A stretch of DNA of 59,919 nt from a virus. This document shows, in pieces, positions 4,054 through 42,763 of this stretch. Under the pieces are notes generated by a model. It saw only the letters and a program-made list of their open reading frames with translations. It did not search any database and was not told the DNA's origin. A program made the translations under genes and the position numbers. Where the stretch lies: the UHGV virus genome UHGV-0342645; one strand, written 5' to 3'. Position 1 is the first letter of the stretch. Each line of letters starts with the position of its first letter.

Positions 4054-4387
4054 TGCTTTTCTCCAGTGTCTGCAACTTGTCCTGAAGCAACTTGTGGTTA
4101 TGTTGTTCATCTTGAATTGCAGAAGTTAGTTTCTTGAAAGAGTCCGTGTCCTTCTCCCTTTGTGCAGCAAGAAATACAACAGCCTCGCCCAGCTTTGCAT
4201 TGTCTTTCTCCACAACGGTTAAACGTTCTTCAGCCAAACTTAAATTTGATTTGTTAAGCTCGTTCTGTGACCACAGGTAGGCAGCCACCCCGCATAAAAA
4301 CACCACCGCGCCAATCATCAGGTACTCGATAAATAGACGCGGTTTAGCTTTTATAAAACTGAAGAAGTTATTTAGAATCATTTTCAT
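3911..4387 (-). CDS. i-spanin (Rz-like)
   Basis: 158 aa; N-terminal TM segment (LMIGAVVFLCGVAAYLW) then coiled-coil-like charged region; overlaps the embedded lipoprotein ORF; directly downstream of holin. Confidence 0.55.
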   Translation of the reverse strand: MKMILNNFFSFIKAKPRLFIEYLMIGAVVFLCGVAAYLWSQNELNKSNLSLAEERLTVVEKDNAKLGEAVVFLAAQREKDTDSFKKLTSAIQDEQHNHKLLQDKLQTLEKSNADVKAYLNERIPDDLRRLLDADSTSPSSTDSEGKTTRASTGGMSGS

Positions 4388-4712
4388 GTTTGCAGTCCTC
4401 TGAGTCGAGTTTGATCCCTGTCCGCGATGCTAGAAGCGACTTTAGAGCTTTTAGCGTAGCACGTGAACCCGCCCAAGCGAATAGGCCAGCAAGGCCAAAA
4501 GCGAACCAAAGGCTGATATTAAACTCCCTGTAGATCGCGTACATTATAACGCCGAAGAACGCGGCGGATAAGCCTTCAAGACATGCAATGCTTAACCGTA
4601 CTTTCTTACCAGCGTCAATTGTGCGCATGACGTAACCGAGAGCTCCCCCAATGAGGGAAATCAGAGCAAACCCCGCTAGAACTGCCCAATGTTCGTTTGA
4701 TGAGTTGAACAT
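4368..4712 (-). CDS. holin (putative)
   Basis: Internal start MFNSSNEHWAVLAGFALISLIGGALG with GGAGGG RBS; about 3 TM segments and charged C-terminus; sits between the putative endolysin and spanins. Confidence 0.5.
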   Translation of the reverse strand: MFNSSNEHWAVLAGFALISLIGGALGYVMRTIDAGKKVRLSIACLEGLSAAFFGVIMYAIYREFNISLWFAFGLAGLFAWAGSRATLKALKSLLASRTGIKLDSEDCKHENDSK

Positions 4713-4729
4713 GTTCCCTCCAATAAAAA

Positions 4730-4743
4730 GGGGCTGACGCCCC
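4730..4743 (-). terminator. short GC hairpin plus T-run between endolysin-like gene and holin RBS
   Basis: Minus strand GGGGC-GTCA-GCCCC followed by TTTTTATT, immediately upstream of the holin RBS; 5-bp stem only. Confidence 0.3.
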
Positions 4744-4748
4744 ATCAG

Positions 4749-5186
4749 TTAAATTACCATTGCAATAGCGCGGTCGATCACGTCATCAGTATAAGGCATC
4801 ATGCCATTTTCATGACGAATGATTGCTTTCACCAAACCTGACATTATCGTCTTGTCGAAGACATTAATTGGATCGTTGGGTTGAACACCAATTGCTTTGG
4901 CAACAGAACGAATATACGCTTCCGTATCGTTTTCATTAGGCGGAGCCCAGCGAGCGATAATTTCACGTACAGTGTCGATGTTTCTCTTACCCACATTGGG
5001 CAAGCCTTCACGTTTGGTGTAGTTTGTCAGGACTTTCGCCAGAGCGCGGATGCCGTAGATCGGTTGCGTAAATTGCGCAAAAGATTTGTCGGTCCGCTTA
5101 TCAACAGGGACCAATCCCTGCCAATTATCACCCCAGCGAATATTACCTGGATTGTTATTACGAATACCACGAGGTTGAAGCGCCAT
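4749..5186 (-). CDS. putative endolysin (fold unassigned)
   Basis: 146 aa from internal ATG with GGAGGAA RBS; conserved-looking RGIRNNNPGNIRWGDNWQG motif; positioned directly upstream of holin and spanins. Confidence 0.35.
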   Translation of the reverse strand: MALQPRGIRNNNPGNIRWGDNWQGLVPVDKRTDKSFAQFTQPIYGIRALAKVLTNYTKREGLPNVGKRNIDTVREIIARWAPPNENDTEAYIRSVAKAIGVQPNDPINVFDKTIMSGLVKAIIRHENGMMPYTDDVIDRAIAMVI

Positions 5187-5268
5187 ATCGAGTTCCTCCG
5201 CTTGACATGAACCACTCAAGGGTAACAGAGAAACTTGATACGGCGCAAGGAGAATTGATCTAAGAAGA

Positions 5269-5529
5269 TTACCCGTCAAACCACTCGCCAATGTACCAGC
5301 TAACAAGACCTTTTCCACCTTTATCGACCCCGTAGCTGGAGTAAAAAGTGAAGTTATCGGGTTCGTGTTGCAGGATAACCATAAAGTCATGCTGAGTGTT
5401 GTCAATAATTGCAATAGCGATTTCCTCGTTATCTGTGATAAAGATTTCGCCACCAATTACAACATGCGTCCCGTGGTCAACTACCTTACTATGATAAGCA
5501 GGTGGGATCAGGTGACTGAATGTAGTCAT
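5269..5529 (-). CDS. hypothetical protein
   Basis: 86-aa ORF tightly packed with neighbours on the early strand. Confidence 0.4.
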   Translation of the reverse strand: MTTFSHLIPPAYHSKVVDHGTHVVIGGEIFITDNEEIAIAIIDNTQHDFMVILQHEPDNFTFYSSYGVDKGGKGLVSWYIGEWFDG

Positions 5530-27699: not shown

Positions 27700-27827
27700 T
27701 AAGTTCTAAGCTTGATCAAAAAATATTTTTAAAAATGTTCAGATAAGGGGTTGCGTGTCACAAAATCCTTTGGTACATTTAACCCCGTTGGTAACAAACG
27801 AACCCATAACAATTCGGAGTGAAGAGA

Positions 27828-28628
27828 ATGAGCAACATTGAAGACAAAAAAGCTGCCGCCGCAGCCGCCGCTGCCGCTGCAAAATCTGCTAAACCTGCAA
27901 AGAAAGAAGCTACTGTGAATGATGCAGAAGCTAAGAAAGCCGCTGCCGCTGAAGCTGCACGCGTAGCAAAAGAGAAAAAAGAAGCAGAGAAAAAAGCTGC
28001 CGCTGAAAAGAAACAAGCTGAAATCCGCACTGAAGCGGAAAACAAATTTACCGCTCTTTCCCAGGCAGTTGAAACCGTGAAGTTTGCTTTATCTGGTATT
28101 ACCGATGAAAGCACTGTTGAACAGATTACGGAAGCAGAATCTAAGGGTTCTGAACAGCTGAAGCATTTAAAGAATGCTCTGAAAGAGCTGAAAGCAGTTG
28201 TTAAAAAATCCAAAGGTGAAGATCTGTCCGGTGCAGTGACTGCTGCTCAGAGCATGGTAGACGAACTGGATTCGTCTATTAAAGGCTTCAAAGACAAGAT
28301 CCGTGCTGCAAAACAGGCAGAAAAAGAAGCGGAAAAAGCACGCGCTAAAGAGCTCCGCGAGAAAGAAAAAGAAGCTAATCGTATGCCGGAACAGAACGGT
28401 GTTCGTCGTCCGCAACCGGAAACTTCCTGCGGTCGTGCCTGGGCTCTGATGGACCAGATTAGCGCTACGCTGGGTCAGCCTGCTCCGATCTCTTATGTTC
28501 TGAATCTGGCTGGTCGCCAGGGGCTGAACGAAGATACCGTTAAAACCCAGTATGCACGCTGGAAGAAATTTAATGGTGTAACTGGTCGCGTACCTGTACC
28601 AGTACCGGAAGCCCTGAACGGCTTGTAA
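27828..28628 (+). CDS. Ala/Lys-rich histone-H1-like protein
   Basis: GGAG RBS; N-terminal KKAAAAAAAAAAKSAKPAKK and KEKKEAEKKAAAEKK tracts; globular C-terminal region. Confidence 0.5.
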   Translation: MSNIEDKKAAAAAAAAAAKSAKPAKKEATVNDAEAKKAAAAEAARVAKEKKEAEKKAAAEKKQAEIRTEAENKFTALSQAVETVKFALSGITDESTVEQITEAESKGSEQLKHLKNALKELKAVVKKSKGEDLSGAVTAAQSMVDELDSSIKGFKDKIRAAKQAEKEAEKARAKELREKEKEANRMPEQNGVRRPQPETSCGRAWALMDQISATLGQPAPISYVLNLAGRQGLNEDTVKTQYARWKKFNGVTGRVPVPVPEALNGL

Positions 28629-39431: not shown

Positions 39432-39635
39432 TTAGAATATACGAAAGAAAGAACCGTATGGGTATACGCCAAAAGTATTGAAAACAGGCGGTGCAAAAGC
39501 ATTCACAAACACAGGAGTTGGCGCTACTGGTTGAAAAGTTTTGCAATTACACGCCGCTTGAGCCAATTGTCCCTGAAGTATACCTGCTTGTGTTGCAGGA
39601 CTGCCTAGACAGCAACGGTTAGTATTACCACACAT
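39432..39635 (-). CDS. small Cys-rich protein
   Basis: AGGAGG RBS 7 nt upstream overlapping the upstream stop; MCGNTNRCCLGSP...CNC; Pro/Phe-rich C-terminus. Confidence 0.35.
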   Translation of the reverse strand: MCGNTNRCCLGSPATQAGILQGQLAQAACNCKTFQPVAPTPVFVNAFAPPVFNTFGVYPYGSFFRIF

Positions 39636-39646
39636 AGTAGACCTCC

Positions 39647-39931
39647 TTAAAGGTCGCTTTCGTTATCCTGCTTGGAACTGGGCTTTTCAGATTCAATCAT
39701 TCCAAGTACCGCAATAACTTTAACAGCAATACGCTGAGCCAGACTGATTTGCTGCTGGGTTAATTTTCCGGTCGACACCACAGTCATTAACCCGCTCAAG
39801 TTTCCAAGAGACTTGAAATCGCTGAATGCTGATTTCATAATACTAAGTTGATCATGACCTTCATCAGCTATAACATGAGCACGAATAGAAAGTCCTTCAA
39901 CAACTTTATCAATACCTTCATTCTTCGTCAT
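39647..39931 (-). CDS. hypothetical protein
   Basis: 94-aa ORF. Confidence 0.4.
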   Translation of the reverse strand: MTKNEGIDKVVEGLSIRAHVIADEGHDQLSIMKSAFSDFKSLGNLSGLMTVVSTGKLTQQQISLAQRIAVKVIAVLGMIESEKPSSKQDNESDL

Positions 39932-40448
39932 TTGGTTTTACCTTCTGCTCCGGTTTCTGAGGGACCGTTTGAGCGGTCTTTGGCTGCAACACTTCCTGAT
40001 CAATCATTGGTGGCCACGGACTAATATGTTCCCGGGCTTCTACAGGTTGCTCCGGTTGCACGCCAAGAAACTTATTAATAAAATCACCTGCAAAGTCTGT
40101 ACCATCGCTGACATAAACGTGCATACGATCAAGATCAGACTGACTAATGGAGTTTGGAGCGATCGTGATTTTAAACTGGTGGAAGCCGACATACATCACA
40201 TTCACGGGTCGTTCGATAGTGCCCGGCGTAGGCGGTATCACTCCCATAATCCAACAGTAATGAACCCTTCCATCACCCATAGGTTCACAGCCAGCATTAA
40301 GCCAGCTAACCTTCTGGTGTGGGAACATGGTAGTTGAATCGGTAGCGTCCCGACGTAACGTCCAATCAACACCGCCCATGTTGATGGAGTTTTTCGGTTT
40401 CATCCCGTTGAACTGGGTTACGCCCATTCCTGCGTTTACGTTTTGCAT
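39918..40448 (-). CDS. hypothetical protein
   Basis: 176-aa ORF. Confidence 0.4.
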   Translation of the reverse strand: MQNVNAGMGVTQFNGMKPKNSINMGGVDWTLRRDATDSTTMFPHQKVSWLNAGCEPMGDGRVHYCWIMGVIPPTPGTIERPVNVMYVGFHQFKITIAPNSISQSDLDRMHVYVSDGTDFAGDFINKFLGVQPEQPVEAREHISPWPPMIDQEVLQPKTAQTVPQKPEQKVKPNDEE

Positions 40449-40463
40449 GTCGGCTTCCTATTA

Positions 40464-40832
40464 TTACATATCTTTCATTTTTTGAAGAGCGCAAGTACAA
40501 GCTGCGGCAAGATCAGTCAACTCTTTCATGATCCCTGCGCGGTCGCCTTCTTTCTTACACTCCATTAATTCGCGGTATTCCATTTCAACAATGGACATCA
40601 TACCGCCGGGCTTGTCGTGGTACGCCGCCCACGTATGCGGAGGTTCTTCCATCCGGTCAAGAACATTTGACATAGCTGCCATATGTTCATGATCTCGAGC
40701 ATAAGAGTGAGCATGTTTATATTCCTCTTTCTCATGTTCATGGTGGTGCTCACCTACGCTAATTCGAGGTAAAGCAACCTTAGGCAATTTGACCCGTGGC
40801 ATTCCCATCGTTGCAATTTTAATGTGGCTCAT
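40464..40832 (-). CDS. His-rich protein, possible MazG-like nucleotide pyrophosphohydrolase
   Basis: N-terminal HHHEHEKEEYKHAHSYARDHEH; C-terminal EMEYRELMECKKEGDRAGIMKELTDLAAA loosely resembles the all-alpha NTP-PPase EExxE...DL pattern. Confidence 0.25.
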   Translation of the reverse strand: MSHIKIATMGMPRVKLPKVALPRISVGEHHHEHEKEEYKHAHSYARDHEHMAAMSNVLDRMEEPPHTWAAYHDKPGGMMSIVEMEYRELMECKKEGDRAGIMKELTDLAAACTCALQKMKDM

Positions 40833-40903
40833 GATAGTACCTCTGTTAAAAGCGCCCCAAGCGGAGGAGCGAAAGGCGCTTTAGTTTAACCACACTTCAA
40901 CGA

Positions 40904-41611
40904 TTAGCAGCAGCCAGTCGGAGGAGTCGGAGGGGTTGGCAGCTTAAAATTGACCAGATCATAAACCTGATCAATTTCGCAGCGAAGCTTAGCGGTCTGT
41001 GCCAGCTGGGAGTTCTGGAAGCGCGATTCCTGCAACTGAGACTTCAGGTCGCAGATAAGAACTGCTTGCGCCTGTGCGTGCTGGTCACGGATCAGCGCAC
41101 GGGTAGCTTCAGCTTGACGCTCGATGTTCAGGTTGGTTTCGCAGCAACACTTCTGAGCTTCTAACTGTGCTTGGAAAGAACGGGTGATGTTAGCCGCTTC
41201 GTTGCTACACAGAGCCGCGAGCACTTGGCTGGTGCCACCCTGAATCTGAGTGTTCAGACCGGCAAAGCCCTGAACGGAAGCCAGCAGGTTCTGAGTGTTC
41301 TGCTGAGTGATGCCATTATAGGTAGAAGCAGCGGAGCGCTCAACAGTCAGGTTAGTACCGTTCTGCCCCTGAATGGTCTGAAGAATGCCGTTGTTGATAG
41401 CTTGCAGAATTGCGTTGGTGTCAACAGAAGCTTGCACTTCTACCGGACCAGCGAAGTTACCGCGACCACCCCAACCACCATTGCCACCCCAACCATTACC
41501 GATCCAGGAACCAATTAAGCCACCGATGGCGCCACCGATACCAGCCGCACCAGCTTCACCGCCGAAGCCATCGCCACCGAGATTAGTAGGTAAAAGAGTC
41601 ATGTCAGACAT
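40904..41611 (-). CDS. glycine-rich protein with Cys-rich C-terminus
   Basis: GGAGAT RBS before MSDMTLLP; GGDGFGGEAGAAGIGGAIGGLIGSWIGNGWGGNGGWGGRGNF then Gln/Asn-rich region with CCC and terminal GCC. Confidence 0.45.
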   Translation of the reverse strand: MSDMTLLPTNLGGDGFGGEAGAAGIGGAIGGLIGSWIGNGWGGNGGWGGRGNFAGPVEVQASVDTNAILQAINNGILQTIQGQNGTNLTVERSAASTYNGITQQNTQNLLASVQGFAGLNTQIQGGTSQVLAALCSNEAANITRSFQAQLEAQKCCCETNLNIERQAEATRALIRDQHAQAQAVLICDLKSQLQESRFQNSQLAQTAKLRCEIDQVYDLVNFKLPTPPTPPTGCC

Positions 41612-41746
41612 AGGAAAATCTCCATATATGGATTTGTTAAGCGGATGTAACCAACTGGTTACGAAGTAAAGCATACCCCTTAACATGCTTTTTACAATGA
41701 TCCATATGTAAAGATTTTGTAAATTAGGATTGACAGCCAATAAAAA

Positions 41747-41775
41747 GCGCGCCCGAAGACGCGCTGTTGAAGTCA
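41747..41775 (-). terminator. rho-independent terminator
   Basis: Minus strand AGCGCG-TCTTCGGG-CGCGCT followed by TTTTTATT, just downstream of the fibre gene stop at 41783. Confidence 0.55.
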
Positions 41776-41782
41776 GATGTGG

Positions 41783-42763
41783 TTATGGGAGAAGTTGCTC
41801 CGGTTGCTTGTTAATGAGCGTTGCTACTAGTTTTTTAAGATCTTCAACTTCTGTCTCAAGCTTAGTAATGCGATCGTCAGTTTCACGACATACCTGAACA
41901 AGCAGACCAACAATACCAGAATAGTTAACGGTAAGATAACGCGTCCCTATTTCCTTATCTTCTTCAGTGTAAACTGTCATCCCACCAACTGCTTCCGGCA
42001 ATGCTTCCATAACCTCTTGTGCGATCACACCAGAATAAGGCATTCTATCAGATTTAAGGGTATATGTGTATCCGTACATCTTGCGCAGCTTTTCGGTGGC
42101 ATTAGCGATGATTTCAATATCGGTTTTCAAGTCTCGGTCAGATCCCGCACTTACGTTATTTGCTATAATATTTCCATTTACATGAAACTCTCTTGAATTA
42201 TCACTATTACGCTGCATATAGAAGCCATAACCATTACTCCAGCTGTATTCAAATACGTCCGCACGTGTCCCGGAACCCCACATATTCAAACGACCATCCA
42301 TTGACGCTGTGCCATCATTTGCAATACGAAAACGTCTTGTGCTAAGATTTTGTTTCGGCGGAATTACAATTTCGCCATTATCATTAAAATCGTAATATAT
42401 TGAGTCACCGGCAGCGTTAACAACATTAATACGCGCGTTTATAACTCCGTCAGATCTAACCCGCACCATTTCCAGTGACGAAGCATATGTTTTTCCATCA
42501 ATATCTATACCTTGAGAGATTAATTTATAACCTGTCCCGAAGTTGCTAGATGAATCGGTCTGCTGATTCTGCGGTCGCTGTGCTGTCCAATCAGTATTCA
42601 CAATCTCCCGTGTTTCCAAGTTACCAACTTCGGACTTTAGAGTTGACACATCGGACTTCAACGTGGAGGTATCTTGCGTTAATGTTGATACTTCTCCGTT
42701 TATTGCTTCAACGTCAGTTTTAAGTTTGGTTATATCTGTTGGTATAACGGTCTTAGTCACCAT
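41783..42763 (-). CDS. tail fibre/spike protein with C-terminal intramolecular chaperone (peptidase S74-like) domain
   Basis: C-terminal SDRDLKTDIEII...YGYTY...GVIAQEVMEALPEAV...coiled-coil end matches the self-cleaving chaperone domain pattern. Confidence 0.55.
   Translation of the reverse strand: MVTKTVIPTDITKLKTDVEAINGEVSTLTQDTSTLKSDVSTLKSEVGNLETREIVNTDWTAQRPQNQQTDSSSNFGTGYKLISQGIDIDGKTYASSLEMVRVRSDGVINARINVVNAAGDSIYYDFNDNGEIVIPPKQNLSTRRFRIANDGTASMDGRLNMWGSGTRADVFEYSWSNGYGFYMQRNSDNSREFHVNGNIIANNVSAGSDRDLKTDIEIIANATEKLRKMYGYTYTLKSDRMPYSGVIAQEVMEALPEAVGGMTVYTEEDKEIGTRYLTVNYSGIVGLLVQVCRETDDRITKLETEVEDLKKLVATLINKQPEQLLP

Follow-up and report, generated by a model that had tools for sequence, protein, structure and literature searches.

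The superinfection exclusion genes gp15 of HK97 and cor of T1, phi80 and N15 are found at the far end of the tail gene block, where they have a promoter-like site and terminators of their own. They code for proteins with a hydrophobic N-terminal segment, can be dispensed with in the laboratory and have spread horizontally among unrelated phages. An N-terminal hydrophobic segment is also present in the T4 holin T and in the lambda i-spanin Rz, together with a large helical domain with cysteines. Rz dimers contain intermolecular disulfides, and the T4 gene t adjoins the tail fibre genes, a placement that is shared by gene 17.5 in T7. The H protein of PhiX174, which is essential and of which about 10-12 copies are packaged, combines a Gly-rich N-terminal membrane segment with a long Gln/Asn-rich helix that has a periodicity of about 3.67 residues. 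The motif GxxxGxxxG, placed in a weakly hydrophobic Gly/Ala/Ile/Leu segment, is found in glycine-zipper envelope proteins such as the SlyB/OsmB-type lipoproteins and microcins. Finally, T4 Hoc and Soc, the phi29 head fibre gp8.5 and T4 fibritin are abundant, late, non-essential and elongated proteins, some of them made from small transcription units of their own.

The gene described here (gene A, coding for protein A) is carried by a stretch of viral DNA of 59,919 nucleotides (UHGV virus genome UHGV-0342645, hereafter the window) and has features in common with each of these systems. It shares with gp15 and cor the location at the far end of the tail gene block, the promoter-like site and terminators of its own, the hydrophobic N-terminal segment, the dispensability in the laboratory and the horizontal spread. 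Nonetheless, there is no sequence similarity to them, the expression signals of gene A are far stronger, its presence in E. coli is limited to virulent phages, and it travels with two to four further genes. With holin T and Rz, it shares the single N-terminal hydrophobic segment, the large helical Cys-bearing domain and, in the case of T4, the location next to tail fibre genes, but it is not homologous to either, is non-essential and extends to monoderm hosts. The Rz-type architecture is compatible with that predicted for protein A; however, gene A lies outside the lysis cassette with no o-spanin partner adjoining, residues 136-220 are without heptads, and the charges weakly favour a cytoplasmic C-terminal domain. 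The apparent likeness to PhiX174 H is one of architecture, with no detectable homology, and whereas H is essential, gene A is dispensable and its product apparently made in capsid-protein amounts. Protein A differs from the glycine-zipper envelope proteins in that it has no Pfam Gly-zipper match at E <= 1, has no lipobox or signal peptide, and has a helical domain of ~185 residues attached. Hoc, Soc, gp8.5 and fibritin each bind one specific capsid lattice, whereas gene A is nearly unchanged across unrelated virions and the N-terminus of its product is membrane-like. Gene A represents a new, uncharacterised family, for which the closest analogues are the autonomous accessory membrane genes of phages. 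What is new here is the capsid-level codon adaptation of this gene, the mobile cassette to which it belongs, and its inactivation on at least six independent occasions.

Genomic setting and expression signals

The region of ~3 kb around gene A is 93-97% identical to Seuratvirus (Queuovirinae) phages such as CAjan, KS_A8, KurtStettler and SA126VB, and synteny with the annotation of KurtStettler indicates that the window is a nearly complete Seuratvirus genome. By this synteny, gene A comes on the minus strand after the terminase, the head and tail genes, a gene for a J-like tip protein and two genes for lateral tail fibres, while the plus strand carries the replication and 7-deazaguanine genes. 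The cassette of endolysin, holin, i-spanin and o-spanin adjoins the terminase gene, ~36 kb from gene A; a LydA-type holin was confirmed in the window at 4371-4745. The gene located 5' of gene A (41783-42763) codes for a tail fibre protein with a Peptidase_S74 chaperone domain, that is, an S74-type lateral tail fibre. Among the open reading frames of the window, no lipoprotein gene is embedded in gene A or adjacent to it. The features of the locus are collected in Table 1. The late-strand protein of 235 residues that had been proposed from the sequence alone corresponds exactly to an open reading frame, and its translation matches the sequence that had been quoted.

Table 1. Features of the gene A locus. 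Coordinates are those of the window and residue numbers are those of protein A.
Feature	Coordinates	Strand	Description
Fibre gene terminator	41746..41765	-	Intrinsic terminator (hairpin and U-run) that ends the S74-type lateral tail fibre gene
Candidate promoter	41670..41697	-	Weak, sigma-70-like, TTGTAA-16 nt-TATGCT; upstream alignment and direct reading
Palindrome GTAACCAGTTGGTTAC	41647..41662	-	At the predicted transcript start; mRNA hairpin or operator candidate
Shine-Dalgarno GGAG	41620..41623	-	Direct reading
Gene A	40904..41611	-	235 aa; ATG 41611-41609, stop 40906-40904; glycine-zipper, Gln/Asn-rich, Cys-bearing; PHROG 9288
Uncharged Gly/Ala/Ile/Leu/Trp stretch, residues 20-49	41465..41554	-	Candidate membrane-interacting anchor
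Predicted single long alpha-helix, residues 65-220	40952..41419	-	AlphaFold2, pLDDT about 50-76
Codons Cys155-Cys156-Cys157	41141..41149	-	Sole invariant triplet family-wide
C-terminal tail PTPPTPPTGCC	40907..40939	-	Pro/Thr tail common across the family
Likely gene A terminator	40849..40882	-	3' of gene A; 10-bp hairpin, then UUUU
Gene B	40464..40832	-	122 aa, His-rich N-terminus; PHROG 9157 without assigned function
Gene C	39918..40448	-	176 aa; PHROG 8329 without assigned function
Gene D	39647..39931	-	94 aa; PHROG 7239 without assigned function; overlaps the end of gene C
Gene E	39432..39635	-	67 aa, Cys-rich (MCGNTNRCC...); PHROG 25697

The ATG at 41611 is the true start of gene A, given that GGAG is found 8 nt upstream, that the homologues from other genera all start with MSDMTL, and that the DNA 5' of this ATG aligns as promoter-like or regulatory sequence and not as coding sequence. 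A longer, TTG-initiated open reading frame of 278 aa is unsupported. The candidate promoter scores under the cut-off of the promoter scan. Its -10 element is kept 5' of the homologues in four of the five other aligned phages; across five genera the -10-like variants are TATGCT or TATACT, with CATACT in JakobBernoulli, and a weak -35 is also common to the alignments. The palindrome, which is unique within the window, folds as RNA with -7.3 kcal/mol (z = -2.8). It takes the form GTAAY-N6-RTTRC in Sasha, JakobBernoulli, vaffelhjerte and eiAU, where it is found directly downstream of the promoter-like element and where the variants retain G.U-compatible pairing. The palindrome may be either a hairpin at the 5' end of the mRNA or else an operator.

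The proposal that gene A occupies a separate small transcription unit after the fibre terminator is borne out by the hairpins that flank it. The hairpin of the fibre terminator has a folding energy of -14.1 kcal/mol (z = -3.4), and the one 3' of gene A lies at the place that matches an annotated terminator in SA126VB. The presence of terminator hairpins on both sides makes gene A an insulated, probably monocistronic unit and, as in the autonomous units of moron-type genes, they are accompanied by a conserved promoter-like region. In the Firmicutes branch of the family, the homologue of gene A is located inside a head-gene operon and has neither a promoter nor a terminator to itself.

The codon adaptation index of gene A, computed with E. 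coli weights, is 0.553, versus 0.556 for the major capsid protein and 0.445 for the tail tube protein. The median for 86 open reading frames is 0.29, which places gene A in the top three. In JakobBernoulli, Yersinia X1, Sasha and eiAU, the homologue has the highest or second-highest index among the neighbouring genes. Taken together, the codon usage, the promoter-like site, the ribosome-binding site and the terminators suggest that the output of gene A is very high and separately controlled. If this holds, gene A would be among the most strongly expressed genes of several widely used coliphage groups, BASEL members included, yet it is functionally unassigned.

Architecture of protein A

The long Gly-rich start and the Gln/Asn-rich region that had been noticed from the sequence are both real. 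Glycine accounts for 22 of the first 55 residues, and the remainder of the protein, also rich in Ala, Leu and Thr, holds all 25 Gln and 15 of the 19 Asn. The first nine residues (MSDMTLLPT) are near-invariant in close relatives and can still be recognised in distant ones as M-[DSE]-x-M-x-L-[LIV]-P. The uncharged stretch of residues 20-49 contains an extended glycine zipper, G26-G30-G34-G38-G42, which corresponds to four successive GxxxG motifs, and in an alignment of 27 diverse family members (A2) both G30 and G34 are invariant. All 29 family members examined have such an uncharged stretch, with a length of 18-39 residues. In these, the N-terminal tail is acidic, with a mean of 2.3 Asp or Glu versus 0.3 Lys or Arg, and the first charge after the stretch is Arg or Lys in 21 of the 29. 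This distribution of charges weakly favours a cytoplasmic location for the C-terminal domain of protein A.

The description of protein A as membrane-inserting or fibrous, put forward in the sequence-only reading, is a fair one of its architecture, given the zipper and the predicted elongated helix, but insertion itself stays putative because the zipper of the enteric members is weakly hydrophobic. The Kyte-Doolittle maximum over 19 residues is 1.27 for the stretch of protein A and 0.9-1.5 among enteric members, which is below the usual membrane-helix threshold of 1.6, while the Firmicutes branch reaches 1.5-2.05. Membrane association gains support from this branch, because an ordinary hydrophobic segment, WFWIIILAFLFCG, takes the position of the glycine zipper.

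Downstream of the zipper, the AlphaFold2 model, obtained with an alignment of 21 sequences, consists of one helix that follows a disordered region (residues 1-64). The mean pLDDT is 56, with 65-76 in the C-terminal half, and a model made of one low-confidence helix is therefore unsuitable for fold searching. The family-averaged hydropathy of residues 64-135 has a period that peaks at 3.65-3.67 residues. For residues 136-220, the same analysis gives no clean heptad signal, and a canonical heptad coiled coil is unsupported for this part on the basis of its periodicity. In distant homologues, the first half of the helical body is expanded into 22-residue QGFxGLN repeats.

Protein A has eight cysteines, at positions 135, 155-157, 187, 211 and 234-235. 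The residues that are invariant family-wide are G30, G34, C155-C156-C157 and R171, with QGFxGLN, T170 (the Thr of the TR motif) and L173 being near-invariant and LCDAK strongly conserved. The protein had been described as ending in CCC...GCC, and both motifs are indeed present here. Of the two, the internal CCC is the one that is invariant, while the terminal GCC, or GCCGC, is found in only part of the family. The very distant Firmicutes branch has a duplicated CCC motif, PTPKP, and a GCC near the C-terminus.

Distribution, co-inheritance and loss of gene A

Protein A matches PHROG 9288 from end to end with E = 1.5e-127, and this PHROG has no assigned function. Together with the 170 proteins found at E <= 1e-3 by a word-indexed search with the single sequence, and with the 180 phage records in which tblastn locates the gene, this demonstrates that gene A is real and not a chance open reading frame. 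A profile search gave ~456 family clusters at 90% identity, none of which (0 of 456) has a functional name, and an exhaustive profile search of 1.84 billion representative proteins gave 111 clusters, none of known function. Searches of Pfam and NCBIfam with protein A returned nothing at E <= 1 beyond noise, and no Gly-zipper, holin or spanin family model. No relative was found in the PDB with the single sequence or with a profile. PADLOC gave no match at E <= 1 for the products of genes A to E or for two distant homologues of gene A. Full-text literature searches, accession numbers included, found no paper on the family. Given that no homologue has a known function, a role as an ordinary fibre component with structural homologues, which the sequence-only reading had set against its own proposal, is so far unsupported.

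The phages that carry gene A include Seuratvirus, Nonagvirus, Sashavirus, Nonanavirus, the T1-like Hanrivervirus and its relatives, the T5-like Epseptimavirus, PY100-like Yersinia myoviruses and Edwardsiella eiAU. Metagenomic relatives are found in a T4-like contig (with gp32, gp59 and Gp10_C) and in other phage contigs, and a very distant branch occurs in the head-gene operon of Firmicutes prophages, for example in an isolate of Coprococcus comes. Among 5,426 complete E. coli genomes and the PLSDB plasmids, none has a copy and, therefore, gene A is in E. coli a gene of virulent phages. More than 80 phages of other genera and morphotypes, myoviruses among them, carry a protein that is 60-85% identical to protein A, also in its N-terminal part. 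Beyond 35 near-identical records (>=95%), the major capsid protein exceeds 60% identity in just one record.

A widespread mobile cassette, A-(B)-C-D(-E), begins with gene A and occurs in Queuovirinae and in T1-, T4-, T5-, 9NA- and PY100-like phages. Related loci were collected with a subset of the alignment (A5), given that A2 was too diverse as a query. Outside the Firmicutes branch, gene A is followed by homologues of genes C and D in about 20 of ~35 such loci, a total that includes several on short contigs or pseudogenised. Gene D is co-inherited with A and C, gene B is often located between A and C and is missing from some cassettes, and gene E is found 3' in Seuratvirus and in 9NA (gp15). 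The PHROGs of genes B, C, D and E have no known function, and none of the four has a match in Pfam or PADLOC; for gene B, the label in BASEL is 'putative pyrophosphatase'. The AlphaFold2 model of the gene C product combines a beta-sheet with a helix, and no structure matches it significantly. On reading, B, C and D have no obvious export signal, which would fit a cytoplasmic rod. The possibility that gene E is a paralogue of the C-terminus of gene A was rejected (BLASTP E = 2.3).

The cassette usually follows the last tail fibre gene irrespective of the type of fibre, which is S74 in four lineages and tail-collar or Gly_rich_2 elsewhere. A specific tie to S74-type fibres was considered and rejected, since this domain is found in only 4 of ~10 upstream fibre genes, and the cassette is therefore associated more generally with the place where the tail fibre module ends. 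In 9NA-like phages, the cassette is located between the terminase and portal genes, adjoining a homing-endonuclease-like gene, and in Yersinia X1 it is isolated, with leftward gene blocks on both sides.

At least six independent events have inactivated gene A. In KurtStettler, a deletion has fused gene A, from codon 20 on, with the S74 fibre gene. VogelGryff has lost everything past residue ~182 together with genes B-E, and in SHIN8 the N-terminus of the first fibre gene is fused to residues 166-235 of protein A. The classical laboratory phage 9NA retains only the first 45 codons and has lost the remainder of A, the whole of B and the beginning of C. JakobBernoulli has an in-frame stop at codon 79, and among T5-like phages the gene of vaffelhjerte contains five stops. 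Given that all of these phages are viable, gene A is dispensable for plaque formation on laboratory hosts, where it may well be costly considering its apparent level of expression. The loss could partly be a by-product, because most of the deletions in laboratory phages take lateral tail fibre DNA with them, and this DNA, too, is dispensable on K-12.

If the proposed high output and role hold, gene A has been silently lost during laboratory propagation, and standard laboratory phages would lack a function that is relevant in nature. This would have consequences for phage therapy stocks and for studies of host range and of competition between phages.

Possible roles of gene A and its cassette

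The reading that we favour, with a probability of roughly 0.35, is that protein A forms a helical rod, abundant and non-essential, that is anchored in the membrane and acts on the envelope of the infected cell and not on the virion. It is favoured because the N-terminus is membrane-like, because the acidic tail is followed by Arg or Lys after the uncharged stretch, and because the gene is an autonomous unit that is dispensable in culture. The conservation of protein A among phages with unrelated virions is not what would be expected if it docked on a particular capsid or tail lattice, and the common denominator of its carriers is the host cell. The insulated unit, with its weak promoter-like site, its hairpin or operator, a good ribosome-binding site and capsid-grade codons, would give a very high output. 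The acidic N-terminal tail and the 30-residue glycine zipper would then associate with the cytoplasmic membrane, or insert into it, and drive oligomerisation, while the Gln/Asn-rich helical body of ~155 residues would form an elongated bundle, held at the invariant CCC and the other cysteines through disulfides or a bound metal. The gene order suggests that protein A acts jointly with C and D, the soluble proteins with which it is co-inherited, whether or not B and E take part. How the complex would alter the behaviour of the envelope is a matter of speculation, and the benefit may be one that pays in nature only, such as the exclusion of competitor phages or the control of lysis and progeny release. 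Superinfection exclusion and the control of lysis or release are the most plausible candidates for the role of gene A. A benefit restricted to nature would explain the repeated deletion of the gene in phages that are grown alone on laboratory strains.

A more elaborate version, which we consider doubtful, takes A, C and D together as an unrecognised and very highly expressed phage envelope device: a zipper-anchored, Gln/Asn-rich helical assembly locked by the Cys triplet, with a fitness function for natural hosts and counter-selected in laboratory culture. The product of gene C would be its dedicated chaperone-like partner, with a weak likeness to the PsbP/Eag fold. Queuovirinae and T1-, T4-, T5-, 9NA- and PY100-like phages would have this device in common, and Firmicutes prophages would carry a related version of it. 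The glycine zipper and the invariant CCC, the partners C and D, and the promoter-proximal palindrome are testable handles that the family offers.

Some observations count against an action of protein A on the envelope. No experiment or homology backs a specific function, and capsid-level expression is unusual for proteins of exclusion or lysis control and would suit a structural protein. The low hydrophobicity of the enteric zipper, the low mean pLDDT of the model and the lack of clean heptads in residues 136-220 weigh on the same side, as does the position of the Firmicutes gene within a head-gene operon with no signals of its own.

The main rival to the envelope model is that protein A is a non-essential component of the virion, namely an abundant decoration fibre or whisker of the head or tail, made of a helical oligomer whose cysteines are cross-linked after release. 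The codon adaptation, on par with that of the capsid protein, is what would be expected in this case, and so are the elongated helical shape predicted by AlphaFold2 and the dispensability in culture, which is also known for decoration proteins. Furthermore, gene A is always located inside a block of structural genes or at its border. It follows the last tail fibre gene in Seuratvirus, Hanrivervirus, T5-like phages, eiAU and the loci L019 and L109, while in 9NA-like phages and the Firmicutes branch it is found between terminase and portal or among the head genes. Nonetheless, binding to a specific lattice is hard to square with a protein that keeps 60-85% identity in phages with unrelated capsids and tails, myoviruses included, and whose relatives have a hydrophobic, membrane-like N-terminus. 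No homologue is found in the PDB or in any PHROG annotated as structural, and in the accessible literature on virion proteomics no paper was found that covers a phage with gene A or its family. We regard a place in the virion as unlikely.

A role in lysis, in which protein A would be a holin-T-like protein, an antiholin or a spanin-like protein that tunes the timing of lysis or the disruption of the envelope, appears less probable still. Phages that have lost gene A still form plaques, and the window has its own LydA-type holin as well as, by synteny with KurtStettler, an endolysin and an i-/o-spanin pair beside the terminase gene. Lysis proteins do not typically reach capsid-level codon adaptation, there is no Pfam match to any holin or spanin family, and the family reaches prophages of monoderm Firmicutes, which rules out a role that is specific to the outer membrane. 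What recalls T4 holin T and the i-spanin Rz is the arrangement, in which a short N-terminus and a single hydrophobic segment precede a large helical Cys-bearing C-terminal domain, as well as the position of the gene directly after the tail fibre genes, like that of t in T4 and of 17.5 in T7. In three distant lineages (L017, L026 and L108), gene A is also within ~3 kb of an endolysin gene.

It is very improbable that protein A is delivered by the virion as a membrane-inserting conduit or pilot protein, comparable to PhiX174 H or to the hydrophobic segments of tape-measure proteins, with the gene C product acting as a chaperone that shields the zipper before packaging. The proposal that protein A is a bacteriocin-like precursor with a double-glycine leader, cut by a C39-type peptidase and exported, is largely refuted: the Gly-Gly at residues 12-13 and a Gly-rich hydrophobic segment superficially like that of microcins or colicin V speak for it, but no Peptidase_C39 or ABC exporter is found among 27 window proteins compared with Pfam or in the annotation of KurtStettler and other annotated relatives, the mature part would have 222 aa versus the usual <100 aa, there is no LSxxELxxIxGG leader consensus, and NLGG (residues 10-13) is missing from most homologues, the conserved element being the N-terminal nine residues and not a cleavage site.

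Loss of gene A in laboratory phages

Phages that were isolated in the laboratory, or propagated there, have lost gene A, which encodes the 235-aa glycine-zipper protein, through deletions, gene fusions or nonsense mutations that arose independently, and adjacent fibre or cassette genes were often removed along with it. The 'putative lateral tail fiber chaperone' of KurtStettler is a chimera of gene A and the tail fibre gene that carries the Peptidase_S74 chaperone domain.

Coordinates of the features and loci considered
Feature	Position	Strand	Remark
Palindrome GTAACCAGTTGGTTAC	window 41647-41662	minus	directly 3' of a TATGCT -10-like box
Gene B	window 40464-40832	minus	N-terminal part strikingly His-rich (GEHHHEHEKEEYKHAHSYARDHEH)
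Gene E	window 39432-39635	minus	67-aa Cys-rich ORF, last gene of the cassette
Gene A loss, KurtStettler	L001 6905-8437		
Gene A loss, 9NA gp12	L105 5959-6147		
Gene A loss, VogelGryff	L106		
Gene A loss, SHIN8	L107		
Gene A loss, JakobBernoulli	L005		
Sasha gp06	L008 3133-4683	opposite to cassette	516 aa, adjoins cassette
269-aa ORF	window 27819-28628	plus	
ORF in place of KurtStettler 'putative endolysin'	window 4752-5456	minus	
LydA-type holin	window 4371-4745		adjoins the preceding ORF

Palindrome upstream of gene A

The palindrome is kept in the form GTAAY-N6-RTTRC 5' of the gene A homologues of five phage genera, including those of Sasha, JakobBernoulli and the related loci L006 and L009, and its substitutions between genera are G.U-compatible. 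The window holds a single copy of it. This element could be a 5'-terminal hairpin that stabilises the mRNA, or else an operator for an unidentified regulator.

Cassette partners and a Firmicutes branch

The sequence of gene E, MCGNTNRCCLGS...CNC..., ends in an aromatic and Pro-rich C-terminus; it belongs to PHROG 25697, of unknown function, and 9NA gp15 (MCCRTSCC...) is its homologue. Gene B is labelled 'putative pyrophosphatase' in the BASEL annotation, and no Pfam model matched it at E <= 0.01. Sasha gp06 has DUF723 and treble-clef zinc-finger matches, as would be expected of a homing endonuclease, and its position next to the cassette fits with mobility of the latter.

A distant relative of gene A is carried by a very abundant lineage of Firmicutes phages or prophages (L036-L095, IMG/VR gut viral contigs; L096, Coprococcus comes). 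It is flanked by the scaffold gene and a gene that resembles SPP1 gp7, its QCCC motifs are duplicated, and its N-terminal segment is a conventional hydrophobic one.

Other ORFs of the window

The ORF occupying the place of the KurtStettler 'putative endolysin' gave no Pfam match at E <= 0.01, and the adjoining LydA-type holin was confirmed. The 269-aa ORF has the highest codon adaptation of the genome (0.558) and only weak, sub-threshold Pfam matches (SMBP, Baculo_PEP_C); it is a further protein of unknown function, with what is apparently very high expression.
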